NCBI GenBank assembly: GCA_036172245.1
Contig: JAYWIR010000049.1
Span: forward strand, 62,001 to 126,000
From: Raillietiella orientalis
Taxonomy: Eukaryota
Length of the DNA: 64,000 bases
Direction of reading: 5' to 3'
Shown: positions 1-64,000 of the stretch, one piece after another
How positions within the stretch are numbered: the stretch's first letter is position 1
Layout of the letters: each line of letters starts with the position of its first letter
Translations under genes and position numbers: made by a program
The notes under the pieces: generated by a model
What the model was told of the DNA's origin: nothing
What the model saw: the letters and a program-made list of their open reading frames with translations, nothing else
Database searches by the model: none

Positions 1-358
1 TTTTCAAGGAGGCGGTTGCGCCCTTTTCCAGGGTTGCGGTTGTCCCATTATTCAAGGGGGCGGTTGCACCCTGTTCCAGAGGGGCTTTAGTTCCCTTTTT
101 CAAGGGGGCCTTTGCCCTCACTTCCGAGGCGGCGGTTGCCCCCTTTTTAAGGGGTGCGGCTGCCGTCGCCTCCGTGAGGGCGGTTGCCCCCACCTCCGTG
201 GGTTGCGGAGAGGAGCAAGCCTCTCCCCCTCCTATATCCATCGCGGTGTCCACAGGCATTTCTGCCATTGGACACCGCAGATGCTTCACCCACAAACACA
301 ATCGAAATCAACCGCTTTACACCAGGCGCAATGGAGCGCTACAAAAACACGTCCGCAC
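1..358 (-). mobile_element. 5' end of lineage-C non-LTR retrotransposon (C1): 5' UTR plus start of ORF1 (ATG at 268), runs off the window
   Basis: Reverse complement matches 55135-55490 (GTGCGGACGTG terminus, MAEMP.DTAMDIGGGEACSSPQPTE, APLKKG repeats). It abuts an RT 'AKL' codon run at 359-367. Confidence 0.85.
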
Positions 359-630
359 GCCAAGTTGACAGCAGGGCTATGGGCTTCGCGTCTCAGGCAG
401 GTGGCAGATTCCATAATTAGCACAGAGCAGACATATGCTGTTCCCGGGCGATGTATGGATGCCAACCTCTTCTTCGCAAGCACATGGGTGCACCTGCAGA
501 GAAGAGAGTAGAAAGGGATAGGGAAAGTCAGCAACCCCACATTGGGGCCGCCAGCCGGGCTGGGAAGGGATCCCCGGGCGGGGAGGGGGGCCCTAGCGCT
601 CGCAGTCGATCTCCACAAGGCGTTCGATTT
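359..630 (+). pseudogene. RT fragment of a lineage-B element, trapped between the C1 and A1 insertions
   Basis: Translates AKLTAGLWASRL..EQTYAVPGR..NLFFASTW..ALAVDLHKAFD; homologous to 26240-26510 (-). Confidence 0.85.
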
Positions 631-843
631 TCACACGGATTACGCCGGGGCGTTTATTGTAAAATAAACTTCTACAAAGAAGTACGGTGGCTGGACCATT
701 GCTCCAGCCACGCACAAAGAAACAGAGCCGGCCGGGTCACCGGTTCGCGGACCGGTACGGTCCACCACGGCAGCAGGGGGAAGGGGGAAAAACAAAAAAC
801 AAAACAAAAAAGAAAAGAAAAGTTGGGAGGGTAAGGGAAGGGA

Positions 844-3800
844 TCACAGTTGCTGGTGGGGCCGTCGCATCCTTTGCAGAATGCCGGCAAGCTCCTTCTG
901 TATTCCTGGATCCAGGTGGTGACATCGGGACGCCCTCCTCAGGAACTGGGAGGCTGGCTGGATAGCACCCTGGTCGCGTTGTGCTCTCGTAGCCTTGCTC
1001 CAAGCAGTGACAATCCCGCGTAGGCAGCACAAAGCTGCTAACGAGGCCGCTGGCCGGAGGGCGTTGGCAAAAAGAGGGCTTTCAGTGCGCCCTGGGGTTG
1101 TCGCAGGGGATTCCGATGGCCGCGGCAAAGCGAAACCAAAGGGGCCGAAGTGCAACACAATCCACTAGCAGGTGGGGGAGGGACTACCGTTCCCCACACC
1201 TGACGCAATTAGGGTCCACCGCACCCCAGGTACAGTGGTGTCGGCGGGCGTTGCAGGAAAGTCCCCAGTGCTGCAACAGGAGAGCCGACTCCTGCCATTT
1301 TAAATGGAGGGAGGAAGTGTTCATGAGCACCGGGGGCCACTTCAGATGTTCAATGGGAACATCGAGCGGCGCGCCCCAGCGCAGAAGTCCATTGGGAGGC
1401 GTACTCGGGGTCGCAGCATCTGTTAACTGGCCCGTCTTCCACTCTCCTATCTTCTTCTCCTTTCCGGAGATTGTTATTGTAACCACCCACTTCGCCGCAA
1501 CATCGCTGTTCCGATCTTCCATCAGGGAGGGCAGCGCAGCAGCGAGGGGGGTTCTTCCTGCCCACGCTCTCTTCTTTGGATCCTCCAGGATCTCGCAGAG
1601 CGTGCAACTTCTATAACCCCCAAACAGGAACCTTCGTTCCTGTTGGGAGCGTTGCATGCCGAACTGTCCCCACGTTCGGACGGTTTCCTGCAACCAGGCA
1701 CTACCGTTCAACGGGCGACAGGTGAGCAATCCTGGGTTTTTCCGATACAGCGCAGCCACCCTCCGTAGCTGGAGTCCGCATCGGTTGACGCGGCGACGGA
1801 GTGCAAGAAACGACGTCAGTCCCGTCTTGCCGGTGGTTTGCTGGAGAAGGAGACGTGCAGGGACGCACCAACAGGTGCACCACAACTCTAGAACGAGTGC
1901 CGACAAGCATAACTGGAGCTGAAGCTCCAGCCGCTATAGCGACAGGAGGCCCAGACTACCATCCCGACGAGGAGCTCACAAGTCCTTTAAGCGGACTCGG
2001 GCCCTCCCGTTGCACCAAAGAGCGATACGGAGGAGGTCCTTTGTCCGCTCTTCAATCCTCTCTGTGGGGGGTCAAACAAAAAGCAAGGGGCGGAGGAGAA
2101 GAGCCGCGAACGTGTTCCAAACCGCGGCCCGTTCGGGCATGAAAAACCTGCCGCCACGGAACGGGCTGATCACCGTCTCTACTTTTTGAAGGCAGCCGGA
2201 CCACGCTTCCGCGGGGGAGTAGTCCCCCAACGGCACACCAAGGTACTTGAAGTACCTCACCGTGGGGATCCCCAAATGGACCCAGTCCTGCTGCCCTGCC
2301 CACGCCGCACCAACTGGCATCACGGACGACTTCGCCCTGTTCACCGTAACTCCCGTTTCCCGATGCAGCAGGTCGAAGGACTCCTCGACCGCCGCAGCCG
2401 GGGTATACATAGGGAGCAGCAGCGGAAGGTCGTACGCGTATGCTGAAACGGCCGGCGTACCGGCACAGTCGTGCGGCAAGTGCGCTAGTGTTCCCCTGTA
2501 CGCTCTCAGTACCAACTCAAAGTAAGTACTGAAGAGCAAGGGGCTCAGGCTGTCTCCCTGCCGGATCCCACGCCGCACCGGCACGCCGTGCACGGTCTGC
2601 CCGCTGAAAGTAACCTTGATGAGCGCGTCGCGCCAGCAGGAGCGCAGATAGGCCACTAATGATGCCGCGAAGCCCAAGCGTCCCAGAAGCTCCAGAAGGA
2701 GATTCTGGTCGACGCAATCGAATGCTTTTCGCAAGTCGATTGCGACCGCAAGGGCTCCCTCCCCCACCCGAGCATGCGATCATTTGTCGGCGCACGCACC
2801 GGAATTCCGGCTGCCCCCCATGCTCCTTTCATGTTGGAGCTCTAGCGAGGTGGAAGCGTGGAACAGGTTCGCCTCCATGCTTCGCCCGGGAACAGCACAT
2901 GTCTGTTCCGGGCTGATGAGGATGTTGGCAACCCGTCCCAGACGCTCTGCTTAAACCTTAGCCAGCAGCTTTACGTCAGCATTCACTATTGTGATGGGAC
3001 GCCAGTTGTTCATGCTCCTCAGATCCTTTCCCTTAGGGAGGAGCCGCACCTTTGCCGAAAGAAACAAGGCGGAAACGTCACCTGTTTCGCGTATCAGCAA
3101 GGTGAGTTGCTGTACCAGGGGGGTAAGCTCAGCCGCGAAAGTTTGATAAAACTCCGCGGGCAGGCCGTCCTCCACTGGAGCCTTTCGCCTCTTGAGCTTT
3201 CCGATGGCCGAGAGGATCTCGTCCATCGTGAAAGGCTTGTCGAGGGTCTTTCTCTGCTCCTCCCCGATCGCGAAAGCGCCTTCCAGAAGCAGGAGTCGTA
3301 AGATGTTCCTCTCCGAAGGTGCCCTGGCATACAGGGAGGAGTAGTAACTCCGCAGCAGGCCGCAGATTTGGGCAGGTGCCGAGAGCTCCTGGCCCTGATC
3401 GTCCATTAAGCCGGCCGATCCGGAATGCGAGGCTTGCCTCTCGGCTCCCGCTTTCTATTCCGCCAGCCTGCGGATGTCGGGAATCCTGGCGTAACGGCGA
3501 GCCTGCAGGTAGGCTCGTTCGTTACGGACTCCGGTCCCAAAACTCGTAGGTAGGCGGTGCAGAGGGAAATGGACGCAGAACTCCTGGACCGACCGCTTGA
3601 AGCGGTCCCAATCTTGGAGTGTCCGCAGCCTGGAGCTCCGTATGAACGTGCGGAGATGTTCCGCCGCGTCAGGGAGCTTCAGTCATTCCCCTGGGAGACG
3701 CCACGCTGACGGGGGGGGTCCCTGTCGCGCGGATGGATCTCGAGGACAAGCGGGCGATGGTCGGACAGCTCGCACGGTAACTTGCCGCGATAGCCCACGC

Positions 3801-4420
3801 GAGGGCACAGGTGCTCGTCAAGAAACACGTGGTCAATGCTGTCTTCCATCCCCGGTGCACTGGCCAACAAATTACAGGTGTGCACCGCCATGCACACCTC
3901 GTTGACCAGGTCACGCTCGGGATTGTGCCCATCTGGTTTCAGGCGAACGTTGAAATCGCCTGCAACCAGATGGGCATTCCGCACGCCTGCTTCGGTGAGC
4001 CAGTCTCGCTAAGGGCAAGAAAAACTCTTTCCTCGCTTTCCTGTTCATCAGGTCCTTGCCGCTCGGTGCGTACACGTTCGTGACGATCAGATCGATCGAG
4101 TCGGACCACCTGAGAGTCAGCTGGCCTACACGATCGTGATCGTCGAACCGTACGCCGTGAGCCGCGGTCTCGACGGCTGGCCGAAGCAGCTAGGCGACAC
4201 CGCAACTTTTCGTACTCCCACACATGTACCATAGCCGTCCTCCGGAGATCCGTTCGATCTCTAGCGCTTGTTCTGCAGAGATCACGTGGATCTCCTGCAG
4301 CAGCGCAAGGTCGTAGGAATCCAGAAGGGCGGATATGTCTCGTCTTCTGCCGGCGTCTGTCATGCCGTTCACGTTTCAAACGGCGATGCGGAGACGACGG
4401 CGGGAGGAGATTCCCGGCAT
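844..4420 (-). pseudogene. A1 ORF2, APE endonuclease-RT-CCHC (broken)
   Basis: Fragments carry NVNG/LLQEIH, GDFN, SDH, KAPxEDGLP, NWRPIT, DLRKAFD, QGDSLSP, YAYD, KYLG and CVRCGER..H..C. Confidence 0.9.
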
Positions 4421-4434
4421 TACTGCTGGGAAGA

Positions 4435-6087
4435 TTAAGGTGTCGGGGAGCCCTCCTCTTGCGAGGCGGGCAAGATGTCCATGGGGGTTTCGGCCTTCTC
4501 AGGCACCTGAGGCACCTGTTCGGCCTCCACCCCCTCCATCTCCTCCGTGTCCGTGCGTGGGAGTCTCTCGGGCGACGGGTGCCGAGAGTTTCCCACGCTC
4601 ATGGCACCCTCGCTTGCGGAAGCCATCTCTTCCCCTTCGCTGGGGAGACGAGCTTCCTTGGCTTTGTAGACTTACGTCCAGCCTTCTTGCAAGGTGCCGT
4701 GGAAACGGAGTCTGCGTTTCCGGCCGCCACCTCGGGGTCGGAAGTGTGGGACTCCTGAGGGGAGGCCGGACTCCTTACGGCCTTCTTGCCAGCCATGCAG
4801 AGTTCTGGCTGCACCGAAGCTACCAGCTCCTCTGAGGCTCGCACGAAGGCTACGTCATCGATGGTGGTGTCGATGACGGACGCCGCCGCCGGCTCGCTCC
4901 CCTCGCTGTTGACTGTGTCAACAGAGGGGAGGTCGTCGGAAGCAGTCAGGTCTTTCCGGCAGCGTTCGGCAACATCGTGAACGCGTTCGACACTGACCCT
5001 GCACTCTTTAATAATCGCGCTACCCTGCTCTTTCTGCTTCTGTTGCTAGGCGATTTTCTTTTCCATCCTCCTCTTCTTCTTTGATTCTATGGCCGTTGCC
5101 ACTTGCCACCCAGTCTCCTGACCGGCTTCCTCAACTTTTTGGCGTTGGCCGCCGGGGTCTCGGGTGCGGCCTGGGTCTTGGGCGCGGGTGGCACAGCCTG
5201 CGCGGCAGCTTTCGCCGCCAGCCTTTTCTGCAGAAACCGGGCGCGTTTTTTAAGGTTTCTCTTGGAACCCACCCGCACTGCGACTTTTGGGCACACCTTC
5301 CTCGTGTGGCCCATTGTGCCGCATACTTGGCACTGCACATTGGGACACCTCTTTTTGAGGTGGCCCGACGTATTGCAGAAGCCACAGTATTTCGGCTTCC
5401 CCACATACCAGAGGTCGACGGTTTCGCCTTCGACCACCAGTTTGTGGGAAGAGTGGAGCCCTCCCGAACGGTCACGCGGGTAGCAGTGAGGCCGTGTTGG
5501 AGCCACGTGTAGTCCTCGAAAGGACTTACTTTCGTCCACTGCGCGTGGACCGTTCCTAACTGTTCCAAAGCGGCGCGACCCTGTTCTTCGCGCATTCGCG
5601 CGGTGACGCCTAACAGGTGGAACACCATGCTGCAGTCCGCCGTAGTGGGGAGGAGCCTGCGCGTCCCCATCACAAAGGGGGTTTTAAGCAGTCGTTGGGC
5701 CAGCTCTGCATGTTTGCAGATGACCTCAACGTACTGACCCTTGCTGCGGATGGTCATAGCGCTGAGCTCCTCCTCTTTCACATCGAGAGCGCGTATGCCC
5801 TTCGAGAAGGCACGCGCGCTCTCTAAAGAATATAAATTGCCTACCTTGTAGAACATAGAGGGGTTGTACCCCTCCTCTACATAGGCCCACAATTCCGCTG
5901 CGGCTGCAGGCGATGACGCCGTCTAAACGGCGCTCCACGCCCGCACTGCAGCATGAACCGATTTTGTAAAGGCGGATGCCTCCACATCCACCGCCACCGG
6001 GGGCGACGTTGCCACCGCCCCCTGGCTCTTCATCGTTTCTGAGGGCGGCGTTACCCCCTGGCCATCCCTGGTGGTCGCGTCAGGCAT
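4435..6087 (-). pseudogene. A1 ORF1, gag-like nucleic-acid-binding protein (frameshifted, stops)
   Basis: CGFCNTSGHLKKRC and CQVCGTMGHTRKVC knuckles (ORF 5087-5539); colinear with 29752-31407. Confidence 0.85.
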
Positions 6088-6197
6088 CGCTGCCTGATCG
6101 ACCACCGAGCCACACGACGCTTGCACTGGGATAGACTTTCTGGCACGAGGAGAACCGAGAAAACACGTCCACCCTGTAGCACGCAAGGCGGTCGATT

Positions 6198-8264
6198 GCG
6201 TAAACCAAAAGCTGCTTTTGGAGCTTATGGAACGCCTAGGGTTCCCTGCACATCTCCTGATGTATTTGCGCGCTTGCTGGCGCCACGCGCTAATCTGCAG
6301 CACTTTCAGCGGCTGCCGGGTGTATGGTATTCCCGTGCGTAGGGCATCCGACAGGGCGACAGCTTGAGCCCGTTGCTCTTTAGCATCTTCGTTAAGTTGG
6401 TGCTGAGAGCATACAGGGTGAACTTGGCCCCCTTGCCGAGCTCGTGCCCCGGCACGCCCGCCGCAGCAGCGTACGCCGACGATCTTCTGCTCTTGTTGCC
6501 AATGTCATCCTCGGCAAAGGCGGTCGGAGACTTCTTCGATCTGCGCAGCCGCGGGACCGGACTGCAGGTTAACAGCGCGAAGTCGTCGGTTGTGCCAATA
6601 GGTGCGGCGTGGGCAGGGCAGCAGGACTGGGTCAGTCTGGAGATCCCCACGGAGAGGTGCTTCAAGTACCTTGGTGTGCCGTTGGGGGACTACTCCCCTG
6701 CGGAAGCGTGGTCGAGCCGCCTCCAAAAAGTCGAGACGGCGATCGGCCCGTTCCTGGAAGGCAAGTTTCACTTGCCGGAACGGGCCGCGGTTTGGAACGC
6801 CTTCGCGGCCCCTATTTTCCTCCTCTTGCTTTTTGTTTGCCCCGCCACCATGGAATCGACGAAGAAGACAAAGGACCTTTTCCGTATCACCCTTTGGGGC
6901 AAGAGGAGGCCCCGAGTACCTCTGAAGGACTTGTGCGCTTCGCGTCGGGACGGCGGTCTTTACCTCCTGACGCTGGAGCGCGTGGAGAAGCAGCTGCAGT
7001 GGCGAACCCTCGCCATCGCAGCGAAGATGTGGAGCACCCCTTGGTGCACTCCGGCCCGCCTCCTGGCCAGCCGTGTGTCCCGATGCGATGGACTCGCATC
7101 TTTTCTTGTGAGCCGTTGCCGGAAGATGCAAAGATGCGGCCTACTGATCGGGCGCATGGCAACATTTGCCAAGGAGAACAGCTGGATGGTTTGCTGCCCC
7201 GCCAACTCCCCCGCCTAGCTGGAGGAGAATATTGGAACGTGTTCAGCGGTTAAGCAGAGGAGCCACGAAACGTGGAATCGTCTCCGATGCAGCCCCTACG
7301 CCCGCTGCACGCTGCGGAATCTCCTGGAGAGTCCAGCATGATGCACGTGGGCAGAGACGATTTGCCTTGCTACGGCGCTGCCCTTCCTGAGAAGGGCACT
7401 TCACAGCTCTAGGACGCCAAGGTGGCTAGTATGCTGCTGCATCGAGGGAAGCGAGAAGTTGATCAGCGGCTGGACAACAGGAGAACTGGTTGACGCCACG
7501 AACCCGAGCGTCCAGCCGCGAGGATTATTAAGATGGGGCGAGCTGCTCGCCATCCCCAGGGATGAGCTGAAGTGGCTCCCGGTAATGAAGGAATCCAGGA
7601 TCCTGCCCCTCAAGTGGCAAAAGTCGGCGTTGCTTTTGTTGCACTGGGGTCTACCCTGCAACGCGCGCCGCTTCCACTGGGCGAGGGGAGCTGTGGATCC
7701 TGCGTGTGGCAGGTGCGGGGAGCGGGAGTCGCTTCCCCACCTTATTGTGGATTGTGCTGCCCTCTGACCCCTTTGGGAACGGTTCGGGATCACCCTCGGT
7801 CTCCCTACAGGCAGCACCCCCAGGTACGTTCTTCGGCCCCTCTTCGTGGAGGACGCACTACAGCCCGCCGCAGCCATCGCAGCCTTGTGCTGCGTCCGTG
7901 GCAACGTGGCGGCATGGAGCGACGCCAACAACGAAGGAGTAGGTCCACAGGCGAGGTATGTCATCTTGTATGCCCAGCGCTTCATGCGAAGAGCTGCCGG
8001 ATGGCCCCAACTGGGGAATATGCAGACAGACCTCGAGGGCTTCGTAGGACGGATGGGCCCTTCTCATAGCGACCAGTGATCCCTTCCCTGCCCTCCAGCT
8101 TCTTTTTGTTTGTTTGTTTTTATTTTTCTTTTTGTCTTATCCCCATCCTCCTTCGCTGTCGAGGAGTGCCACGCCGGGCTGCGTTCCGGTGTCCGGACAG
8201 GTCCTGCGTCTACGGCCGTGGTGGGGCCTCGTACCACGCATGTAGGGTTTACGTACGTAGGTGA
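6198..8264 (+). mobile_element. 3' half of a lineage-B element (B1): RT C-half, CCHC, 3' UTR. The first ~230 nt are G-type and the terminal hairpin is deleted.
   Basis: ORF 6364-7218 has YADD and KYLG; stop at TGATCCCTT 8077; UTR matches 24152-24360 and 41239-41445. Confidence 0.85.
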
Positions 8265-11004
8265 CAACGCCGAATCCCCGGGGCAGACGTTGTACAGGGA
8301 ACTGTTCGCAGAACTCCCGGCCCGAGTCCTTAAATAGGACCCAATGCGCGAGACTCTGGAGGGTGACGGCTCGCAGGAATTCGCGAAGATGTTCTTCCGC
8401 TCCTGAAAGGCGCGTGCAGTCCCCTGGCATACGCCAATCCCTGGATGGCGGTCCCTTGTCGCGCGGGCGCATCTCGAATAATAACCGGGAATGGTCCGAC
8501 AGCGTCGATTTTAAGTGTCCCTCGTTTTCCGACCCGTGTGCACAGGTCTTCGTCGAGGAAGACGTCGTCCACGCTGCTGACCATCCCGCTTATTTCTGTC
8601 AACAAGTTGCGCGCCCGCATGGCGTCACACAACTCGTTGATCGCCTTCCCCTGTGCTCCGGGCTGAGCTGAGAGCAGACGGACGTTGAAATCCCCTGCTA
8701 TCAGATGCGCCTTTCGCACGTCCGAGTCCACCAGCCATTCGCGCTTCAAGGTTTCCAGTAACGCGTTGCGCTGCTGGTATCCCTGTTTACCGCTAGGAGC
8801 TTACACATTGGTGACGATGAGGTCGATCGAATCGGACCATCTGAGAATCAGTTGGCCGATCCGTCCGTCGTCTCCAAAGCGCACGCCCTTCACGGCCGCG
8901 TTAATGGCTGGCTTTAGGAAGAACGCGACCCCCCAAGTGTTGCGGGCGCCGCATCGCCAGTACAACCGCCCTCCCGCGATCCTTTCGATCTCCTGGGCGT
9001 CTTTTGCGGTGATCACATGGATCTCCTGCAAAAGCACCAGGTCGAAATCTCGCACGGTGGCGGCTGTATCTCGTCTGTTTCCGTCGTCGCGCAGCCCGTT
9101 AACATTCCAACTGGCCGCGTGGATCCGACGGCGACAGGCGAGTCCAGGTGTTATTCCTGGGAACCTGGCGGTGGTGCTCCCGCCACCTTTTGGGGCGGGT
9201 CGCTGGACGGGGTTGGCGTCTTGCCGACCAACTCCCCATCCTTCTTACGTGCCGACGTCTCCGGCTGCCCGTGCGAAGGGAGTGTTGCTCGTACCTGTTG
9301 GCCCACATCCATTGGTGTGGGTGGTTCAGGTTCGGCGGTTTCAGAGGGCATTGCTGACCCCTGGTTACCCTCCTCCATTGGAGTCTCCTCCTCGTCGGCT
9401 TCCGCACGTGGGTGATGCCCGAATTGGGCTCCCACGCTGCCATCCACTGGTTCCTCCACCATTAAATCCCCCTCGCGCGGAGGCGGATTGCACCTTCGGG
9501 GTTTCTGGGATTTTCGCCCCGCTTTCCTTGGTGGTGCTTCCGCAGAAGAGGATGCACTTCCGGCCTCCAGGTCCGACTCACCTGCGGGGGCCACTTTAGC
9601 CGCTGCCGGCCTACGCAACCCCTTTCGCGAAGGGTTCTCGCGTTCGGCAAGCGTTGCCGCAAGCTCATCGGCGGCCTTCTCGAAGGCTGCGTCCTTGGTT
9701 TCGGCGATTTGGTCGTCCGGCTGACCCTCTTCGCAAGCAGGGGGTGGGTTTTCGCGCGCATTCGTCGCGGCGGGAAAATCGATCGAAGCCGTATCGCCTC
9801 CGGTGGTGTCGACGGGAACGTCAATGGGCTCCAGCGTAACCGTGCATTCTCGGAGAGTTTTTACGCGCTACACGGATTGAGCTTTGGTTCCGGCCGCCGC
9901 CTTCTCTCCTTTCTTCGGGACATGCTTGTCTTTTTTCTCTTTTTTGGCTTTGACTAGCTGCCAGCCCTGTTCTCCCTCTGCGGTTTCGGGAAGATTTTTC
10001 TCCGATGCCGCGCTTGGAGCTTGGGTTATTGGCAGCTTTTCTCGGCCAGTTTCACGCTTTTCCAATTTTTCTTTCCCCGCGCGTTTCCCTTGCGCCTTTT
10101 TGGCGGCCGAGCAAATTGGGGTGGGGCGTTTAGGGCACACGCGACGGACGTGTCCCTTCTCCCTGCACTAGTAGCATACGATGTTTGGGCACCACTTTCG
10201 GATGTGTCCGACCGCATCGCAGTAGCCGCAATATCGTGGCTTGCCCGCATACCAGAGGTCTACCGCTTCTCCCGCGACCTCAAGTTTGTGGGGTAGCTTC
10301 GCTTCGTCTTTTGGGGTTACGCGTGCCGCGGCGAGGCCCCCGAAGTGGCGTCCGTAGCCCTCAAAGATTGTGGGCTTCGGCCACAGCGCGTGTACGTCCC
10401 CGTACTTACTTAATTCTGCTTTTACGGCAGTGCGCGTCATGCGCTTGGATATTCCTGTCAAGTGGACAACTACCGAGTGGTCCATTGACACCGGGAAGAT
10501 CTTACGGCCGTCCATGATCAGCGGGGTATTTATAAGGCGATCGGCTAGGCTGATGCTCTTGCACACCAGCTCAACCCGCTGCGCCCCGCTAAGCACGCAC
10601 AGACCTTCCAGATCTTCCTCACGGACATTAGCATATTGAAGTGCTCTGCTAAAAGAGCGCGCCGTGTTTCCTTCAAACAAAGGGCCTACCTTGTATATAA
10701 ACGATAACTTGTATTCAGAGGCCCGATAGGCGGCTTCCTCGGCCATGGCCTCCGCACAGGGGGCGGCGACCATTTCACTCCAAGTCTTCGCCGGCTGCGA
10801 AGACGTTCCAAGGACTATAGCCCCCATAGCTGTAGGTCTTGTGGAAGGACTTGCCTCCCCACAACTACATCCATCGCGGTGTCCTCTGGCACGGCTGCCA
10901 TAGGACACCGACGACTCACACTTTACGCCTGACTACACTAAAAACTCCGGTTGCTTCCCAGACAAGCGCTGGCGGAGCGACCAAAAAACACGTCCACTCG
11001 CCAA
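8265..11004 (-). mobile_element. 5' half of a B-like element (B2): ORF1 (~10901-9151) plus EN, cut at RLPRGFG
   Basis: GGACGTG at 10989-10995; CGYCDAVGHIRKWC knuckle; WNVNG, LLQEIH, GDFN; ends at REFCEQFPVQRLPRGFG. Confidence 0.85.
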
Positions 11005-11018
11005 GGGATTTGGCGATG

Positions 11019-24097: not shown

Positions 24098-24110
24098 AGA
24101 AAGGACTTTA

Positions 24111-27490: not shown

Positions 27491-27491
27491 A

Positions 27492-41224: not shown

Positions 41225-41238
41225 GGGAGTCGGCGTAG

Positions 41239-46500: not shown

Positions 46501-46710
46501 CCCGTACCCTCCCAGTGTTTTCCTTTCTTTTTGTTTTGTTTTTTGTTTTTTCCCTCTTCCCCCTGCTGCTGTGGTGGACCGTACCGGTCTGCGGACCGGT
46601 GACCCGGCAGGCTCTGTGTTTTTTCGGGAGTGGCTGTAGCAATGGACCAGTCACTGTACGTCTTTGTGAATGTTTATCTTAAAATAAACGCCCCGGCGAA
46701 ATCCGGGTGA
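43597..46710 (+). mobile_element. Lineage-A element A4, lacking its 5' part (starts at EN SDH)
   Basis: ORFs 43687-44367 and 44830-46338 (YADD); terminus at 46683-46710. Confidence 0.88.
46683..46710 (+). terminator. Representative conserved 3' terminal signal: AATAAA plus CCCGG-loop-CCGGG-TGA
   Basis: 13 copies, one at each intact 3' end. The function is inferred. Confidence 0.7.
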
Positions 46711-47372: not shown

Positions 47373-47387
47373 GGCGGACGTTGAGTA

Positions 47388-49291: not shown

Positions 49292-50134
49292 AAATCGAAT
49301 GCCTTATGGAGGTCGACTGCGATTGCTAAGGCCCCCTTTCCCGCATGAGGGTCCCTACCCTGTGCCACTGGCGGCCCCAAAGTAGGGTTGCAAATTTTCC
49401 CTTTCCCTTCTTTCTTACTCCGCTGCGCGTGTATCCATGTGCTCGCGAAGAAGAGGTTGTCCTCCATGCTTCGCCCGGGAACAGCGTAAATCTGCTCCGG
49501 GCTAATTATGGAATTGGACACCTGCCCCAATCGCGACGCATACAGCCCGGCAATCAACTTGGCGTCCGTGTTTACAATCGTGATCGGACATCAATTGCAA
49601 AATTTCCTGAGGTCTCCTCTCCTCGGGAGGAGCCTCACTCTGGCTGACCGAAACGAGGCGGGAACATCGCCTTCGTCTCGGATTCACCTTGTCAACTCGA
49701 GCACCAGGGGGGCCAGCTCTTCCGCGAAACTCTGAAAGAACTCCACGGGCAAGCCGTCCTCCCCTGGCGCCTTACGCCTCTTGAGCCTTTTGATACCGGC
49801 GAGAATTTCGCCGGTAGTGGAAGGCTCATCGAGGCTTTCTCTCTCCTCCTCCCCTATCGCCACGGAACCACTCATGAGCAATCGCCGCGAAGCGTCTTGT
49901 TCGGGTGGTGTTTTGGCGTAAAGGGAGAAATGAAAACACCGCACGAGATTCCGTACCGCAGACGGGGACGAACGTTCCCGGCCCAGGTCATCCAGCATGC
50001 TGGCTGACCCGGATTGTCAGGCTTGTCGCTCGGCTCCGGCGCGGTATTCTGCCAGGCGACGGACACTGGAGTTCCTCTCGTGACGACGCGCGTGCAAATA
50101 CGCGCGTTGGTTGCGAGCCTCTTCGCCGAATCCC
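49292..50134 (-). pseudogene. B-like ORF2 fragment (B6), between the GFG and KAFD sites
   Basis: GFGEEARNQRAYL..KAPGEDGLP..DAKLIA..AVDLHKAFD. Confidence 0.85.
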
Positions 50135-55134: not shown

Positions 55135-55224
55135 GTGCGGACGTGTTTTTGTAGCGCTCCTCCGCGCCTGGTGTAAAGCGTTTGGTTTCTTTTGTGTTTG
55201 TCTGTGGAGCATCTGCGGTGTCCA

Positions 55225-57246
55225 ATGGCAGAAATGCCTGAGGACACCGCGATGGATATAGGAGGGGGAGAGGCTTGCTCCTCTCCCCAACCCACGGAGG
55301 TGGGGGCAACCGCCCCCACGGAGGCGACGGCCGCCGCACCCCTGAAAAAGGGGGCAATTGCCGCCTCGGAAGCGAGGGCAAAGACCCCCTTGAAAAAGGG
55401 AACAAAAGCCCCGCTGGAACAGGGTGCAACCGCCCCCTTGAAAAAGGGGACAACCGCAACCCTGGAAAAAAGCACAACCGCCTCCTTGAAAAAGGGGGCA
55501 CCTGCACCCTTGAATGCGTCTTCGGCATCGCCGAAGGCCTGGAGTTCAGTGGCTGCAGCCCCATCTCCTGCAGCCCTCGCCGAGCAGAAAGCCTACCTGG
55601 AGCAGGGATACAAGCTGTCCTTGATATACAAGGTAGGCAATCTGTTTGTCGGGAACACCGCTCGTAACTTTGAAAGGGAGTTACAGCGGTTGGATGTTAA
55701 AGAGGAAGACCTGGAAGGTCTCTCCGTGATGAGTGGGGGCCAGCGGGTGGAGCTGATGTGCAAAAATGCAAGTCTGGCTCAACGCCTGCTGAACACTCAT
55801 ATCACTCTGGAAGGCCGAAAGGTCTTCCCTGTAACGGAGGACCGCTCCATTGTTGCCCACCTTACGGGTGTATCTCTTCGCATGACCAAAGCTGGCGTGC
55901 AGGAAGAGTTACAAAAACATGGTACGGTGCACGCGCTCTGGACCAAGCCCAACGTCTTCCAAACATACGGAAGACTGTTCAGTGGCATGGCTGCAGCGCG
56001 TGTGACGGTCCACGAAAACGGTGGGCTGCCCCACAAACTCGACGTCGGCAACGAGGTCGTCGATGTCTGGTACGTGGGCAAGCCCAAGTACTGTGGGCAC
56101 TGTGATGCAACAGGGCACCTGAAAAAACGGTGCCCCCACATCCAGTGCTTCCACTGCGGCGAAAAGGGCCACCTGCGAAAGGTGTGTCCTAAACGCGAAA
56201 CCCCGGCTCCCCCTGCTTTGAAAAAAGCCAAAGGGAAACGCGCGGGGCGATCGGACAAGCCTAAGGAGGCACCCGAGAGGCGGAACCCACAGCCAGAGCC
56301 CGAACCCGTGCAGCAAGCGCCGGTCGAGGGTACTCCCGACGACGCTGGAGAGAGCGAGGGCTGGCATATGGCTAAGCCTAAAAGTAAAAAATTCAAGAAA
56401 TCCGAAGAACCGACAGCGGAACCCGCGACATCTTCCTTAAATAGGAGACAACGCCGCGCGTTGCTCCGCGAATGTTCGGTCGCTTTGGAGCGAGTGGAGA
56501 TCCCCGAGACCTCCACCGGGGGAGATATCTCCCGCCTCGTTGACGCCGAAGCCGCGATCGAAAAAGGCGAACCCTCGGTGCAAACAGAGGGGGAGCCGAG
56601 CGACGCGCTCGCCGCAATCGAGGACGCCGCCTTCCAGCAGGCGGCGGAAGAGCTCGCGGCCGAACTCGCGGAGCGTGAGAACGGCGCGCGAAAGGCCTTG
56701 CGATGGCCGGCCGCGAGCAAGGCACCTCGGACAGGTGACCACGAACCGGATGCCGGAAGTGCGTCCTCCTCCGCGGAGGCGCCTCCGAAGAAGACTGGAC
56801 GGAAGTCCAAGAATCCCAAGAGGCGCATCCCGACAAAGAAGGAGGGGGACGCACCGGCATCCGAGGGGGAAGCCGGCAGCGTGGGAACGGAGGGAGGGAT
56901 TTTCCCACCCTCCGCTACCGAGCAACTGGAGACCCCCATGGAGGAGAGGGATAAGGTGAGTGATTGCCGCCCCCTCCCATCGGTGGAACCTGTCCAGGAG
57001 ATAGCCATGGAGGAGGAGGAGCAGACAGCTGACAATCGCTCCCCCCTGCCGTCCAACGCAGCCGACGAATCGGCCCCCATGGAAGAGGGGGTGCAGGTGC
57101 GTGAAACCCGCCCCCTTCAACCGTTGCGGTCCGCCGAGGAATCGGCCCCCATGGAGGAGGGAGAACCGGTGCGCGGTGATCCCGTTCCTCCATCCGTCCC
57201 GCCCGACCAGGTGGCGGGAACCCCATTGCCACTTTCCCAGGAGTAA
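55225..57246 (+). CDS. Intact ORF1 protein (gag-like; two CCHC knuckles; probable RRM-like region; acidic low-complexity tail)
   Basis: Open frame from ATG 55225; CGHCDATGHLKKRC and CFHCGEKGHLRKVC. Confidence 0.88.
   Translation: MAEMPEDTAMDIGGGEACSSPQPTEVGATAPTEATAAAPLKKGAIAASEARAKTPLKKGTKAPLEQGATAPLKKGTTATLEKSTTASLKKGAPAPLNASSASPKAWSSVAAAPSPAALAEQKAYLEQGYKLSLIYKVGNLFVGNTARNFERELQRLDVKEEDLEGLSVMSGGQRVELMCKNASLAQRLLNTHITLEGRKVFPVTEDRSIVAHLTGVSLRMTKAGVQEELQKHGTVHALWTKPNVFQTYGRLFSGMAAARVTVHENGGLPHKLDVGNEVVDVWYVGKPKYCGHCDATGHLKKRCPHIQCFHCGEKGHLRKVCPKRETPAPPALKKAKGKRAGRSDKPKEAPERRNPQPEPEPVQQAPVEGTPDDAGESEGWHMAKPKSKKFKKSEEPTAEPATSSLNRRQRRALLRECSVALERVEIPETSTGGDISRLVDAEAAIEKGEPSVQTEGEPSDALAAIEDAAFQQAAEELAAELAERENGARKALRWPAASKAPRTGDHEPDAGSASSSAEAPPKKTGRKSKNPKRRIPTKKEGDAPASEGEAGSVGTEGGIFPPSATEQLETPMEERDKVSDCRPLPSVEPVQEIAMEEEEQTADNRSPLPSNAADESAPMEEGVQVRETRPLQPLRSAEESAPMEEGEPVRGDPVPPSVPPDQVAGTPLPLSQE
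55335..55512 (+). repeat. 33-nt (11-aa) tandem repeat in the lineage-C ORF1 N-terminus (APLKKG-like); also at 1-165 (-)
   Basis: APLKKGAIAAS..KTPLKKGTKAPLEQGATAPLKKGTTATLEKSTTASLKKG. Confidence 0.8.
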
Positions 57247-57438
57247 CACCTGGGCTCGCCTGTCGCCGTCGATTACGCGTGACCTGCTGGAACGTGAACG
57301 GGCTGCGCGACGACGGCAACAGACGGGACACGGCCGCCACCCTGCGTGACTTCGACCTGGCACTCCTGCAGGAGATCCACGTGATCACCGCGGAGAACGC
57401 CCAGGAGATCGAAAGGATCGCAGGGGGACGGTTGATTG

Positions 57439-60400
57439 TCACCCGGGTGCGCCGGGGCGTTTATTATGAACTATCCGGGAACAGGGTTCCCGGACAAAGG
57501 GGAAAACAAGAGACGAAGGGGGTGGGATCCCCGACACGCAGGTCGGTATGCCGAAAGTCCGGAACTGGAGGGAAGGGACCACAAACACACTACTATATAA
57601 AAACAATAAAAGAAGAATATGGAGGGCAGGGGACAGGGGTCTTTGGTAAATCCGTTCCTTCCTTTCAAAACCGGCGATGGATGGCGGCGATCTCTCTCCT
57701 TACGCCCTGTGGCGGATGGGCCCACTGGGCAGCCGACAACATGTTTGCGCTGGCTAATCCAGTGGGCTGACGAAGGATGGCCAGCTTCTCCAACTTTCGG
57801 TGGGCCTTGTCGATGGCGCGGGTGCAACACACGGTTGCAACGACAGCACCCAATGACAGGCCGCCTGGCGTGAAGAAGCGTCGCATCAACTCCCTCGCGG
57901 TGTCCCCCTGGTGCAGGAGAGCTGAGGACAGCCTTCGCCAGAGTCCTAGAAGGGCACCGCAGTCCAGGAGCAGGTGCGGGAGCGTTTCCACTTCCCCGCA
58001 CCGCTTACAGTTTGGGGAGACGACTCCCCCGGAAACAAGGTTCGTGCGCTGGTTGGAGTGAAAACCCCAATGCACCAGCATGATGACGTCCTGCTTCCAC
58101 GAAAGAGGGAACACGGAAGTGTTCAAACAGGAGGGAGGGACCACAAGTTCTGTGGGGTGCACACTCAAGTGTTCACTCCACCGAAGGAGTCCCTTCGAGA
58201 TGTGGCGAGGCGTGGCGGCGTCTGCCAGCTCGCAAGTCCTCCAGCCGCCAATAGGTCGTGTTGTTCATGCAATGGTGCAGGCGACCTCCCATCTCGCCGG
58301 TTTGCAGCTGTCATCTCTTGCCCTGAGGGCTGACAGCGCGTCGGCGAGGGGCGTGACGGCCAGGCGAGTCCACTTCTCCTGGCTGTTGCACACCTCATAC
58401 ACCGTGCAGTACGGGGAGAGGTGAGCGCAACGGAGTTCCAGGAGGGAAACATCCTGGTGCTTTGCCTAACCATGCAACGGTTCCTGCCGCCAGGCTTGAA
58501 AGTTCGTTGGGCGGCAGGAGATCCATTCCTGGGCTTCCAGGAGCCGATACAGCGGTTTCAAGGGGAAACCGAAGCTTCTCGTGGCGCGCTCCGTGTGCGG
58601 CCGCAGCGACAGAAGTCCATCGCTGCCTGTGCAGCGCCGCAGAAGCAGGCGCGCGGGAGCGCACCACGGTGTGGACCAAAGGTTGGCGCACAGGGCCAAC
58701 ATCCGAAGCTGCACCTGCAGCTCGATTCTCTCCAGCGTCAGGATGCCTAAGCCTGCATCCCGACGCGGAGCCGCCAAGTCTTTGAGGCGGATCCTGGACC
58801 TCGCAGGTCCCCACAGAGCGTTCCTCAACAGGCTGTGCGCCTGGAGCTTGGCCGAGTAGGGGGGCGGGCAAACAAAAAGCAGGGGGCGCAAGAGAGGGGC
58901 AACGAAGGTGTTCCATATCGTGGCCCGCCCCGGCAGGACGAACCTGCCATGGTGGAACGGGCTCAGGGCATTCGAAGCCTTCCGAAGGCAGTCCGACCAC
59001 ACTTCCACTGGGCTGATGTTCCCCAGCGGAACGCCCAGATATTGCACGGAGGAAGCTGTCGGGATCCCCAGGCGGATCCAGTCGGACTGCCCCTCCCACG
59101 CCGCACCAATAGGTACGACCACGCTCTTGCTCCAGTTTACGCTCATGCCCGCTCCCCGGCGAATCAGCTCGAAGAAATCCTCGAGACTGGATGCCAGGGT
59201 GGTCATGGGTAAGAGGAGAAGCAGGTCGTCAGCATAGGCCGCCACGGACGGCGTTCCTGGACAAGAGCTCGGCAGGTTGGCCAGCGTCAGCCTGTACGCC
59301 CTCAGCACCAACTCAAAGAAGATGCTGAAGAGCAACGGGCTTAAGCTGTTGCCCTGCCTGATGCCCCGCCGCACCGGCACGCTGTACACGTGGCAGCCGC
59401 TAAAAGAGATAAAAATGAGCGCGTGGCGCCAGCAAGCGCGCAAATACGCCACGAGGTGCACCGGGAGACCGAGGCGTTCCAGGAGCTCCAGGAGGAGATC
59501 CTGATTTACGCAATCGAACGCCTTGCGGAGATCGACCGCGACCGCCAAGACACCCGGCGCTTCCCCAGGCCGAAAGCAGCGACGCCTAGCCTCGGCAGCC
59601 GCAGACGGGGTCGCTTGGCTGTCGTGAGCCACGCAGCGTTGCAGCTCGAGCCACGTGCGCGCGAAGAACAGGTTCGCCTCCATGGACCGCCCGGGAACAG
59701 CGTAAGACTGCTCCGGACTTACCACGGATCCAGCGATCCTGCCCAGGCGCGCGACCCACAGCCTGGAGAACAACTTGACGTCCGCATTCACCAAGGTGAT
59801 GGGACGCCAGTTGCTTAAATGGCGCATGTCTCCGCCTTTCGGCAACAAACGCACCCTTGCTGAGCGAAACGAGGCCGGGACATTGCCCGTCTCTCGCATC
59901 AGCGCAGAAAGCCTCAGCACCAGGGGGATGAGTTCCGCCGCGAAGCACTGGAAGAACTCCGCAGGCAGACCATCCTCACCTGGCGCCTTGCGCTTCTTGA
60001 GGCCCGCTATGGCGGAAGACACTTCTTCCGCCGTGAAGGGCAAGTCAAGAGTGGCGCGTTCCTTCTCGTCGACCGCCGGGGAATCCGCCGGCAGAAGCAG
60101 CTCCGAGAGACTGCGTTCCGTTGGCTCCCTAGCGTACAACAAGGAGTAATAGCGCTTTAGGAGGCGGCGAACTTCGGCCGCGCCCGAGCACTCCAGGCCC
60201 TGGTCGTCGAGCAGACAAGCTGCTCCTGACTGCCAGACCTGGCGTTCGGCCTTGGCCTTGTACTCCGCAAGGTACCGGACGTCCGGGCTTCGAAAGAATT
60301 GGCGGGCCTGCAGAAACTCTCTGCTGTTGGCCACGCCTTCCCCGAAGCCACGGGGAACCAGGCGCAAGGGGAACCGGCTGCAGAACTCGCGGACCGATCT

Positions 60401-62601
60401 TTTCAGATCGTCCCAGACCACGAGCTCTCGAACGGCAAAGGTCCGGAGATGCTAGCGGAGATGCTCCGCAGCCACCGGATTTCTCAACCAGTCGGCCGGC
60501 AACCTCCAGACGTGCGTCGGAGGGCCCTTGCCAGGCGGGAGTAGCTCAAACTCCAGCCTGTAGTGGTCGGAAAGCTCGGACGGCACGGGACCTCTTCGAC
60601 CCACCCGACAATGCAGGTGATCGTCGAGGAACACATGGTCCGGCAAAGCACGCATTCCGGGATCCTCGACCAGCAAATTCGAGGCGTGCACCGACGTGCA
60701 CACCTCGTTCACCAGCTGTTTCTCTTGGCGACGGTGAGACTCCTCCGATAGCGCGTGGACGTCCAAGTCCCCGTCTACGAGGTGAGCCACGTCGGGGCCG
60801 GAGTTGCTGACCCAGCGGTCGCGCAGTCTCTCGTGAAACTCCGCTTTCTCGGTGTGACGCGCGGAGCCGCTCGGCGCGTACACGTTCGTGACGACAAGGT
60901 TGATCGATTCGGACCACTTGAGAACAAGTTGGCCCACACGACCTTCCTCGTCGAAACAAACGCTCCGCACCGCTCCCGCCACCCTGCCCCGGACAAGGAA
61001 TGTGACTCCGCAGGTATTCTGGGAGCCTGACCTCCAATGGAGCGTCCCGCCTTCGCGAACTAGCAGATCGGCCGCTTGCTGCTCGGAGAGTGCGTGAATC
61101 TCCTGCAGCAGGGCCAGATCGAAGTCGCGCAAGACGTTGGCAACCAATCGCCTCTTCTCGTTGTCCTGCAGCCCCTTGACGTTCCAACAGGCCACTCGGA
61201 CGCGCCGGGAAGAAGCAAGACCGCGCATTGCTGCTACGGACATGGAGGTGCGTTCCTCGCCCCGTCCGGCGAGGTATCAGTCGGGAGCACGGGGGATGAG
61301 GTAGCGCATGCGCTTCCTGTCCCCGCCGCGCCGCTCGCGGCATGCTCGGTGGAGTCGAGGACCTTTGCCTCGGGTTCCGAGGAGCATCGGGAACCGTTCC
61401 CGGCATCAGGCTCTTGCCTGGCAAGTTTTGGCTTGCGCGTCGCCCTGGCCTTGACCGGGGCTTGGCGAGCCTTAGCGCTGCCCTCGGACTCCACCTCGGA
61501 GTCCGAATTGCGCGCGCGCGGCGGCGGGCGTTTCGGCTGCCTCTTTGTTTGCTGGCAGCCCGGAGCTGGTCCAGCACTCTTAGAGGGTGCCTTCGTCGCC
61601 GATCCCCCTTTCGGGGTCACGGCTTCGGCAGCTCCCCTCTCGCCGCGGGTGTTTGCGGCGGCGCGCGCGGCGGCAGCAGAGGCTTTTCCTTGCGCCTTTG
61701 TGGGCGCGCGGGGTTGCCTCTATACCCCGCCTTCCTTTTGGATCGGGAAGTTGGAAGGATCGCGCGGTTTGCGATCCTTCTTTCCCCCGACGAAGGTCCA
61801 GCCATCCTCGCCGCCTTCCTGTTTGCCCCGGTAGGGCGCGAGGGCTTCCAGGGTCCTTCGCATCCTTTCCAAGGCCTCGGATACGGCGATGGAGGCCAGT
61901 GTCTCCTTCGCCACGTCTGCCTTCTGCACCTCCTTACCGGGAGGTGCGGGCACAGTGGCGGGATTCTCGGGTGTCGCGCGAGGCTTTTCAGCCTTTGCTG
62001 GCGTTCGGCCCGGCGTGGCCGGCTTGCCTGTCGCGGGCAAAGGGGCGCGCGACCCCTTTTTCGACGCTCCGGTGGTCTTCCCGGGCGTGCCACCGCTATT
62101 TCGCTCCGGAGCGAGAGCAAACGGAAGCGGCGGTGGTTTTGCAGCCTGCCCGATGTTATCGGCGGGCTGGGTCGCTCGGGACTTCACTGAAGCAGCCTGG
62201 AGAAGCTTCTTGTCCTTTCGCGCGGGTTTTTGTGGTGCATTGCTCCGAGAATCGCCCGCGCAAGCGGACTTTTCACTTCTCCGCTGAGAATGCTCGTTCG
62301 CGCCTGATTTCTTCCCCGACGACGGGGCGGATGGAGTCGGCGCGGACGGCGCTGTTGCGGGAAGGTTTCTCGCCCTCCTCTTTCGTTTCAGCTCAGCGCA
62401 CTCGTTAATCGAGAGGCCGAGCAGCTTATAGTATCGGCAACTGCGTGTTGGTTACTTCCGCGGACGGTGGCCCTCCTTCCCGCAGTTGCCGCAAGCGGCT
62501 GTTTGCCCTGCAGACCGGAGATAGACGACGACGTCACCGAGGAGGATCTGCGAAGGCATGAGCCTCCGGTCGTCCATGGTTACGCGCGCCGTCGCAATTC
62601 A
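57439..62601 (-). mobile_element. Lineage-E element E3: ORF1 C-part, whole ORF2 (61243-57665) and 3' terminus
   Basis: Homolog of E1 and E2; CKRCGEVETLPHLLLDC; terminus at 57439-57465. Confidence 0.9.
57665..61243 (-). pseudogene. E3 ORF2, the least decayed pol in the window (EN 60452-61243; 651-aa open RT stretch 58466-60421)
   Basis: WNVKG, LQEIH, NVYAP, SDH; NWRPIT, DLRKAFD, QGNSLSP, YADD, YLG; in-frame stops at 60452 and 58466. Confidence 0.9.
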
Positions 62602-64000
62602 CACCCGGATGTGCCGGGGCATTTAATTCTTGGAAATGAAAATACATGAAATATCGCGTGGCGAACTCGAAGGTTCACCACTCCAAAACAGCTTGCTGGT
62701 TACCGGCTCCATGCCGGAGAGGTCCTTCCGATGCGCGGGGATGCGAAATAAATAAAAACAAAAAGCTCAAATGTAAGGGGAGGGGAACAAATGTTGCAGG
62801 GTGGGAGGGCGGGAAAGGGATCACAGTGCGCGCGGAAAGGTACTCTAGATCCTGTTCAGGATCCGCACAAGCTAAGTCCTTTCAGCGCCTTAGTGGCGCC
62901 ACTTGCAGACATTGCGCGCGAAAAGGCGAGTCCAGTGTAAGGCGTTGCCGGTTGGCTGACGCCTCCTTCTGGTGGCTTTCGAAGCCGCCACTATTCCTCT
63001 GATGCAACAGAGGACTGCTACACTAGCGGGCGGGGACAAGGCTTCACTACAGAAGAGGCGCCTTAAAACGTCCTTTAGACAGCATCCGCGCAAGTCCAGG
63101 ATCGCCGCGAAACGATCCCACAAAGGGCGGACGACTCTGCACTCCAGGAGAAGGTGGGGGAATGTTTCTGTTCCCCCACACCGGTCACAATTAGGATCCA
63201 CAGCCCCCGGGTGGTGTGGTGCAGGCGTGCTTTGAATGGTTATCCCCAGAGGACCACAAGCAACGCCACATCCTGCCACTTCAGGGCTAGGGATCCACTG
63301 TTCCAGGACGCTGGGGGCCACTACATCTCCTCCGGAGAAAGTCCGAGTAGCTCTCCCCAGGGTCGAATTCCGTTGAGCGGGACACTCGGAGTAGCAGCAT
63401 CCGCTAGCTGCCGAGATGTCAACGCCTTTATCGATTGTGTCCTGCCGCCTATGGTGCAGGACACGGTCCATTTCCCCTGCTCGCTACTGTCCCTGGCATT
63501 CACAAGGAAGGGCAGCACTGGGGCGAGGGGGGTTATCAAGGCCCACAGAAGCTTGTCGTGAGACTGCACGATCTCCTGCAGCGTCCAGCGGGCGTGCCTT
63601 TTCATACAAGTGTTCCTTGTGCCCGCCGGAACGTGGATCTTTTCCCAGGTGGAGACTGACTTGTGCAACCAGGCGGAGTAGCTCCCTGGGAGGCAGGAGA
63701 TCGAGGCGTTGTCCAGAACCGCAACGAAGATGCGTCGCAGCATAGACCCACAGTATGGTCTCCTGCAGACGCGCCCAGACAGAAACGACAAAAGTCCGCT
63801 GATTGCGCAGGCTCGTTGGGCCAGGAGGCGTGCTGGAACGCACCAAGGCGTGTCCCACAATTCCGCCGCAAGGGCGAGAGTCCTGAATCCAAGTTGTAGT
63901 TCCATGCGCTCCAGAGTAAGTACGCCAAGTCCACCGTCCTTACGTGGAGCGCACAAGTCTTTGAGCCTCACACGGGACCTCCCTTTGCCCCAAAGGACTG
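62602..64000 (-). mobile_element. Lineage-D element D2, 3' part, runs off the window
   Basis: Reverse complement of 16930-18331; terminus at 62602-62628. Confidence 0.88.

Follow-up and report, generated by a model that had tools for sequence, protein, structure and literature searches.

The DNA analysed here, 64,000 nucleotides of Raillietiella orientalis (assembly GCA_036172245.1, contig JAYWIR010000049.1, positions 62,001 to 126,000 of the forward strand; hereafter the window), is a nest of retrotransposons that lack long terminal repeats (non-LTR elements), long interspersed nuclear elements (LINEs), that appear to have inserted into one another at fixed positions of their open reading frames (ORFs). 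The 64 kb could be parsed fully into 30 LINE segments with no other DNA; we denote the lineages by letters and their copies by numbers. The GC content is about 59% throughout. Neither tRNA genes nor Rfam families were found in the window, and by the latter result none of the elements carries a known ribozyme at its 5' end. Using two reference proteins, both from the window, a 936-amino-acid (aa) ORF2 (58469-61276, minus strand, one stop) and a 689-aa ORF1 (55177-57243), we obtained tblastn matches that tile the entire window on both strands, and a blastn comparison of the window with itself returned many copies that are 70-93% alike.

Pfam matches were obtained for 12 of 118 stop-to-stop ORFs of at least 170 aa (RVT_1, 8; Exo_endo_phos, 2; zf-RVT, 1; zf-CCHC, 1). 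The reverse transcriptase (RT) domain PF00078 was detected in 8 ORFs of the window. The apurinic/apyrimidinic endonuclease (APE) domain PF03372 lies N-terminally in ORF2, with E-values of 9e-14 (B5), 9e-10 (E2) and 1.1e-8 (P0121), all above the gathering score, and is present in every lineage with a visible N-terminus. The zf-RVT match (PF13966) is weak, with E-values of 1.3e-4 (A4) and 0.0033 (D1) that are both below the gathering score; a CxxC...H...C string is visible by eye in D1. As for ORF1, zf-CCHC was found in the 689-aa protein of C1 (21.7 bits, cutoff 20.8), and CCHC strings can be seen by eye in that of E as well. The N-terminal part of C's ORF1 also holds 24/48-nt tandem repeats (TRF; 1-163 and 55385-55514), which code for 'PLKKG(A/T)...' units.

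Shared termini of the elements

All lineages share the same two ends. The common 5' head contains GYGGACGTGTTTT, and the common 3' module, starting with AATAAAYGCCCCGGCR, reads AATAAA-YGCCCCGGCR-N3-4-CCGG(G/T)TG plus 0-4 nt. A motif census returned 13 matches to the 5' head, nine of which are true ends (356, 6172, 10997, 16218, 29667, 38900, 41217, 50142 and 55137), while the remaining four are internal with one mismatch each. For the 3' module, 13 of 15 matches are true ends and the other two lie inside the ORF1 of C; the degenerate 3' end of B1 at 8264 was recovered by alignment, which brings the total to 14. Every one of these 14 3' ends, and all nine full 5' ends, lie either at one of eight ORF sites or at a 14-nt target remnant (11010 and 41230). 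When 14 termini were distributed over 12,000 states in a chance model, not one of 200,000 simulations brought four of them to within 4 nt.

No poly(A) or simple-repeat tail was found at any of the 13 aligned 3' ends. The AATAAA lies 23-25 nt before every 3' end (e.g. 35174-35202 and 57439-57464), the usual distance of a polyadenylation signal, and still the DNA copies are without poly(A). Folding of the 13 ends with RNAalifold gave only a 4-bp stem (-2.9 kcal/mol), of which a single pair is changed from C-G to U-A in three sequences that belong to two lineages, and we do not claim a structured RNA element at the 3' ends.

Insertion sites and inserting lineages

A first-pass annotation of the window had listed about 20 junctions at which the terminus of one element lies within an ORF of another. 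All 21 coordinates were real and accurate to about 3 nt when read in the sequence. As a count of separate events the list has to be reduced, because 630/6197, 29642/35200 and 27490/38905 are two ends each of one insertion, and 50134, entered as a 3' end, is actually a 5' head of B that faces the other half of its target site. After pairing of the ends there remain five events for A, two each for C and D, and one each for G, E, I and J; B is represented by five junctions in at least three contexts.

Elements of lineage A lie antisense at KAFD, motif A of the RT, with 3' ends at 630, 35200, 46710 and 49291 and 5' ends at 6197, 16243 and 29642. Their 3' junction is constant, with ...GGGTGAAA on one side and ATCGAACGCCTTGTGGAG on the other (the antisense of VDLHKAFD), and the hosts B1, G, D1, E3 and B6 are hit at one nucleotide position. 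B elements lie antisense at GFG: the junctions at 8264 and 24151 read GGGTGA/yAACGCCGAwTCCCC (slash, the joint), the antisense of PRGFGV, while B copies stand in tandem at 11010 and 41230, where a 14-nt target remnant separates a B-type 3' end from the following copy's 5' head. C is found antisense at DAKL, where the 5' heads at 357 and 55134 adjoin ACGCCAAGTTG in the hosts B1 and J. G occurs as a single insertion (38905 to 27490) in sense at GDFN (GGAGATTTCAAT) of B2, flanked by a duplication of 8-9 nt, and D lies in sense at ATARVT in the ORF1 of E, with 3' ends at 18331 and 62601 (IATARVT). The three remaining lineages insert antisense: E at GGRL of C1 (3' end 57439), I at EV/RR of E1 (20700) and J at TLxNL of B5 (52791). 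Taken together, the insertions may be read as a directed network in which A enters B, G, D and E; C enters B and J; G and J enter B; B enters B; D and I enter E; and E enters C.

Two further breaks fall exactly on listed sites, namely 43596 at DAKL of B3 and 47372 at EV/RR of E3; the two EV/RR junctions thus lie in two differently truncated copies, E1 and E3. The breaks at 14366 and 24105 were considered as GDFN insertions and rejected, as they are off the site by 6-8 nt and about 18 nt. Sister copies preserve the empty state of several sites. KAFD is empty in B2, B3 and E2 and filled in B1, GDFN is empty in B5 and filled in B2, EV/RR is empty in E2 and filled in E1, and DAKL is empty in B2 and B6. 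Target-site duplications were read for B2 (14 nt, 11/14 alike) and for G (8-9 nt).

Is the choice of site a property of the inserting lineage or of the host? Over the last 500 nt the copies A1-4 are 73-91% identical, B1-3 88-93% and D1-2 95%, whereas E, G and I each remain single and J comes closest to A, with about 70%. A maximum-likelihood tree of the C-terminal RT region with 13 rows yields (A1-4)+J, B1-3, I+D1 and E2+G, all supported at 92-100; its A5 row represents a chimera, whose grouping with B is therefore not a lineage identity. It follows that sister clades (A/J, I/D and E/G) differ in their site and even in orientation. In a matrix of the target sequences, all four sites hit by A have CTCCAYAAGGCRTTCGAT, in contrast to TTGCGAAAAGCATTCGAT in the RT of A itself; B targets B-clade sequence only (GGATTCGGCG), and the I-site breaks are found in E-clade sequence only. 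Identity matrix, target matrix and tree thus bear out the earlier suggestion that the site tracks the inserting clade and not the host. The accompanying suggestion, that the targets are essential conserved motifs of relatives, was overstated: of the targets named, only KAFD, DAKL and GDFN recur as conserved motifs across lineages, and GFG, EV/RR, TLxNL and GGRL are clade-specific nucleotide sequences. A's own KAFD region (2728, 13131, 33104 and 44641) differs from CTCCAYAAGGCRTTCGAT at 6-7 of 18 nt. Within the window, no A copy is interrupted by another element.

The segments are collected below.

Segments of the window: position, strand and context
Segment	Position	Strand	Context
C2	1-357	-	5' part, ORF1 start, runs past left edge; head 356 adjoins B1 DAKL; 93% to 55126-55492; ORF1 aa 4-105
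B1, DAKL-to-KAFD piece of ORF2	358-629	+	hosts C2 (357) and A1 (630); 87-90% to B2 and B3; aa 486-588
A1, full-length	630-6196	-	antisense in B1 KAFD; 3' module ends 631, head 6172; 89% to A2 over 6.1 kb
A1, carried target copy	6185-6196		12 nt, AAGGCGGTCGAT
B1, KAFD to 3' end	6197-8264	+	first ~215 nt (6197-6410) not B-like; 3' end antisense in B'4 GFG
B'4, B-related, head (10997) to GFG	8265-11010	-	hosts B1; ORF1 aa 112-689, ORF2 aa 19-322
GFG target remnant	11011-11024	-	14 nt, CATCGCCAAATCCC; between tandem AB5 and B'4
A5/AB5 chimera	11025-16243	-	head 16218 in D1 KAFD; A-like to 12342, then B-like with 3' end in GFG
D1, ORF2 KAFD to 3' end	16231-18334	+	sense at IATARVT of E1's ORF1; hosts A5
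E1, ORF1 ATARVT to ORF2 aa 369 (EV/RR)	18335-20699	+	92% to E2
I	20700-24105	-	3' end (20700) antisense in E1 EV/RR; 5'-truncated ~18 nt before GDIN
X, B'-like ORF2 remnant	24106-24150	+	45 nt (aa 308-322); ends at GFG; hosts B2's 3' end
B2, C-terminal part, GDFN to 3' end	24151-27490	-	KAFD and DAKL sites empty
G, KAFD to 3' end	27491-29642	-	3' end in sense at B2 GDFN
A2, full-length	29643-35202	+	antisense in G at KAFD
G, head (38900) to KAFD	35203-38905	-	5' end at B2 GDFN
B2, N-terminal part, head 41217 down to GDFN	38906-41225	-	90% to B5
GFG target remnant	41226-41239	-	14 nt, CTACGCCGACTCCC; between tandem B3 and B2
B3, 3' end back to DAKL	41240-43596	-	broken exactly at DAKL cut position; KAFD empty
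A3, 5'-truncated from ORF2 aa ~253	43597-46712	+	3' end antisense in E3 KAFD
E3, ORF2 piece EV/RR to KAFD	46713-47372	-	E-like; 89% to E2
5'-head-like fragment	47373-47388	+	15-16 nt, CGGCGGACGTTGAGT; at EV/RR cut site
A4, diverged, from ORF2 aa ~652	47389-49293	+	3' end antisense in B6 KAFD
B6, ORF2 piece GFG to KAFD	49294-50134	-	B-like; hosts A4 and B5
B5, head (50142) to ORF2 aa 285	50135-52790	+	GDFN empty; hosts J
J	52791-55134	-	3' end antisense in B5 TLxNL; reaches DAKL; hosts C1
C1, head, intact 689-aa ORF1, ORF2 to aa 79 (GGRL)	55135-57438	+	hosts E2
E2	57439-62601	-	3' end antisense in C1 GGRL; ORF2 936 aa, one stop; ORF1 from ATARVT; KAFD and EV/RR empty
D2, 3' part	62602-64000	-	sense at ATARVT of E2's ORF1; runs past right edge

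Proposed route of integration and competing explanations

The 5' ends of the A elements carry additional information. All three A 5' junctions contain AAGGCGGTCGA(T/C), whereas the hit hosts read AAGGCGTTCGAT, which means that the 12-nt copy resembling a target duplication travels with A. At A1 the foreign stretch is longer. The first 200 nt of its apparent host match A2's flank in G at 90-96%, but B2 and B3, sisters of the real host, at only 52-74% (compared tract: 6197-6410 beside A1 against 29642-29430 beside A2, about 215 nt), while from about nt 250 onwards the resemblance is to B (84-98%) and no longer to the flank of A2; the RT reading frame runs continuously through the switch. As far as these letters go, the tract points to a homology-guided joining of the 5' end. 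In the simplest reading, the A RNA would start upstream, in the antisense strand of its host, the end of the cDNA would anneal to the homologous target in analogy with R2, and the joint would be resolved at a point that varies, about 215 nt along for A1 and at most 12 nt along for A5.

Based on the site-specific junctions and their dependence on the inserting clade, we propose that the members of one L1-like radiation, in a cluster of more than 64 kb, integrate sequence-specifically into one another's ORFs at clade-fixed positions, and we assign this interpretation a probability of roughly 0.78. Each element would encode two proteins, with CCHC knuckles in ORF1 and with APE, RT and, at the C-terminus, a zinc-binding motif in ORF2. 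Integration would likely proceed by target-primed reverse transcription from a clade-specific nick set by the APE, with cDNA synthesis starting at the defined 3' module and not at poly(A). A target-derived leader at the 5' end of the RNA could then anneal to the homologous target and replace it in register, as in models of R2, and it is this leader to which we would attribute the precise 5' joining. Target-site duplications would rebuild part of the site, and such a partly rebuilt site would explain tandem copies with a 14-nt remnant between them. Later deletions, together with ectopic recombination of copies in the same orientation, would have disordered some of the nest. This interpretation has support in the cases of A, B, C and, largely, I; it is plausible in those of D, E, G and J, where the sampling is thin.

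Several points weigh against it. The data come from a single 64-kb window, in which E, G and J are each represented by one event. Identical targets were left unhit (KAFD and EV/RR of E2; DAKL of B2, B6 and A5; GDFN of B5), and site occupancy is thus not saturating. The two D junctions may be one event that was later duplicated: between the two copies of the D/E junction, the D side is 94.1% identical (1317/1399) and the E side 92.0% (2176/2366; p=0.013, with strong local heterogeneity). The 3' flanks of B1 and B2, 93% alike over 42 nt, could likewise go back to one duplicated event, and the tract common to A1 and A2 could have arisen by gene conversion between the two loci. Finally, five joints (43596, 47372/47389, 24105, 12342 and 14366) lie outside simple insertion.

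At 43596 the truncated 5' end of A3 abuts DAKL of B3, while its 3' end lies in KAFD of E3; a 270-bp target duplication was considered as the source of the two flanks and rejected, since B3 and E3 share no more than 61% identity there. At 47372-47389, A4 is joined to a 15-16-nt head-like fragment at EV/RR of E3. A3 and A4 have in common that the 3' end lies in KAFD of one host and the 5' end in another host, exactly at the cut site of another lineage (DAKL or EV/RR). At 24105, I faces the 45-nt X remnant in a head-to-head joint. At 12342, A5 changes in register, within one ORF2, from A-like (88% to A1) to B-like (75%) sequence, and the 5' end of the resulting chimera lies at KAFD and the 3' end at GFG, a combination suggestive of ectopic recombination between two insertions. 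The joint at 14366 is a 340-nt internal deletion in A5. Overall, the five look like products of deletion, of ectopic recombination between copies in the same orientation or of the capture of a cDNA end by a second break.

Could nucleic-acid homology, and not the endonuclease, be the main source of the specificity, be it through read-through or leader pairing as in models of R1 and R2 or through a recombination-like integration? We consider this unlikely, although the 12-nt target copy in three of three A 5' junctions and the approximately 215-nt tract of A1 speak for it, as do the 24 nt of host sequence next to A's 3' end that are identical in three different hosts. G's 3' tail CGGGAGAT (27491-27500) is moreover identical to the 8 nt immediately upstream of the cut site in GDFN, and for R2 it is postulated in PMC3774820 that target sequence kept on the cDNA anneals and yields uniform 5' junctions. 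However, the two C 5' junctions have nothing in common with their flanks beyond the 11-nt target, no evident match links the 3' tails of A, B, E, I and J to the sequence that follows the cut, and sister clades with near-identical 3' modules use different sites, while no lineage with a visible N-terminus lacks the APE domain. The 5' head of B (noted at 38906-38918) begins with TTGGCG and resembles the antisense DAKL target at the C junctions; this likeness and that of the G tail may be relics of, or aids to, target pairing.

A second alternative, that segmental duplication and rearrangement copied a few original junctions and thereby produced recurrent sites without any targeting, is very improbable. 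It draws on the match of 16932-20697 to 64000-60170 at 92-93% across the D/E junction, on the B1 and B2 flanks mentioned above, and on the evident rearrangement of the region by deletion or recombination at 12342, 14366, 24105 and 43596. For A, the comparison of the two sides of each junction argues otherwise. When A1, A2 and A3 are compared with one another at the 3' junction, identity is 86-91% on the element side and, past the first 40 nt, 56-60% on the host side; in pairs with the diverged A4 the values are 69-73% and 51-76%. In five of the six pairs, hosts of different lineages at 51-60% thus stand against element sides at 69-91%, and in the sixth (A1/A4) both hosts are of B type and 76% alike. 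At the C 5' junctions the elements are 93% alike and their hosts 62%. The I-site breaks, moreover, lie in two differently truncated E copies, and the empty sites of sister copies show insertion with target-site duplications. On these alignments, the A and C insertions are independent events and duplication is refuted as their full explanation. The concern that all repeated junctions might trace back to one duplicated insertion therefore falls for A and C, whose hosts are unlike, while the D pair and the B1/B2 flanks are compatible with duplication.

An assembly artefact, i.e. chimeric joins at conserved motifs in a repeat-rich assembly, is scarcely credible, since, although some breakpoints do lie within conserved motifs of repeats that could be mis-joined, the junctions bring canonical termini (3' module or 5' head) up against internal positions, for the most part antisense and accompanied by target-site duplications, which homologous mis-assembly could not produce. 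An independent DNA run (X1), the only DNA run found, with no RNA run listed, holds 21% of the sampled words of the window. Its contigs cover 30 of 30 bins of 44001-64000 (591 contigs, of which 24 are at least 99% and 320 less than 90% alike); they are short and mostly derive from other copies or from a relative and, being mostly less than 90% alike, do not verify individual joints. One contig that spans an uninterrupted GFG site (50133 to 60381), and two that place E's 3' end (57439) after other letters with a mutual agreement of 0.72, are too weak as evidence. Elsewhere at about 2-30, the depth of X1 contigs rises to 659 at 48670-49336, where T-rich loose ends occur at 49097-49133; this spike probably reflects a low-complexity stretch in the 3' untranslated region of A4 that is common to unrelated DNA.

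A wider form of the proposed specific integration pictures a self-contained ecosystem, in which the radiation repeatedly re-evolved its specificity, its clades live only in the ORFs of others and build LINE-only megaclusters, possibly centromeric, and the target-derived 5' leaders serve as homology arms through which the 5' end is integrated seamlessly and in register; on this we would lay even odds. If the specific integration is true, the window would represent a natural experiment in changes of APE and RT target specificity, with A/J, I/D and E/G differing in site and orientation, as well as a concrete case of parasite-on-parasite dynamics among transposons. It would also offer a mechanism by which gene-free LINE islands, candidate centromeres, could grow without harm to the host. 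The in-register replacement of about 215 nt suggests 5' joining assisted by homology arms, which bears on programmable DNA insertion by site-specific retrotransposons.

Relation to known elements and systems

The best match of the RT in the PDB is human LINE-1 ORF2p (E 2.6e-39), with R2 at only 4.5e-17. In a large protein collection the sole close relative is P0001, a metagenome protein that is 61% identical to the RT of E2 and places the family in at least one other sampled organism; the other relatives are at most 33% identical (nearest named ones 24-33%) and show the L1-type domain set PF03372+PF00078+PF13966. Proteins of Coccomyxa, Chlorella or Chlamydomonas were not among the 120 + 15 protein matches listed, and the ESM Atlas returned generic RT clusters only. 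A metagenome scan with a degenerate pattern of the 3' module, which is too generic, gave 120 loci, none of them related by tblastn or blastn. With L1 ORF2p as the best solved match and only one close protein relative, the elements are, judged by their sequences, L1-group APE LINEs of a poorly sampled branch; their first-pass description as L1-like APE non-LTR elements agrees with the Pfam domains and with the PDB match.

Known safe harbours of LINEs are multicopy genes of the host, microsatellites, telomeres and a DNA transposon, and Zepp-type elements pile into themselves. In Xenopus, Tx1L inserts into the DNA transposon Tx1D. Tx1L and APE LINEs of the Tx1 and R1 clades resemble the elements of the window as APE non-LTR elements with nucleotide-precise insertion into a multicopy target; unlike in Tx1L, the targets here are coding sequences of sister LINEs, with at least eight clades and eight sites in one cluster. 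HeT-A, TART and TAHRE of Drosophila are also several LINE lineages that form head-to-tail arrays and are known only beside or on one another, but they attach to chromosome ends and are not known to have a sequence-specific internal target or to insert at fixed codons of each other's ORFs.

PMC4640811 counts transposons as targets that site-specific non-LTR elements are known to use and names Tx1 and R1 as the clades of APE-type specialists; R1Bm provides an APE that cuts both strands specifically (PMC1919474). R1 and R2 of the ribosomal DNA share with the window the precise sites and the use of one multicopy target unit by several lineages. For them, too, target-derived sequence at the 5' end of the RNA has been postulated to lead to uniform 5' junctions (PMC3774820). 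In contrast, their target is a host gene, and R2 has a restriction-like endonuclease and a ribozyme resembling that of hepatitis delta virus.

Zepp (Chlorella and Coccomyxa) and ZeppL (Chlamydomonas), L1 elements in centromeric clusters, likewise build nested LINE-only clusters by insertion into existing copies. Zepp forms one nested cluster per chromosome (PMC3446292), and ZeppL is a single family in Chlamydomonas (PMC9940879). Transposon-rich algal centromeres have been described with no site rule given (PMC11005252), and the target rule of Zepp is taken here from its citation in PMC8226300. An (A)n tail is listed for Zepp and L1-1_CR in Table 3 of PMC3747384, and Zepp arrays are described as mostly 5'-truncated 3' ends, whereas the elements of the window are without an (A)n tail and nine copies keep their 5' heads; in place of the single ZeppL family there are at least eight clades, each with its own site. 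The first-pass suggestion that a multi-lineage network of LINEs inserting into LINEs is undescribed stands to the extent that we found none in the literature searched, which left subscription journals mostly outside its coverage. In summary, three differences set the window apart from known site-specific APE LINEs and from Zepp nests: the many clades and sites, the use of the relatives' coding sequence as target, and the absence of poly(A).

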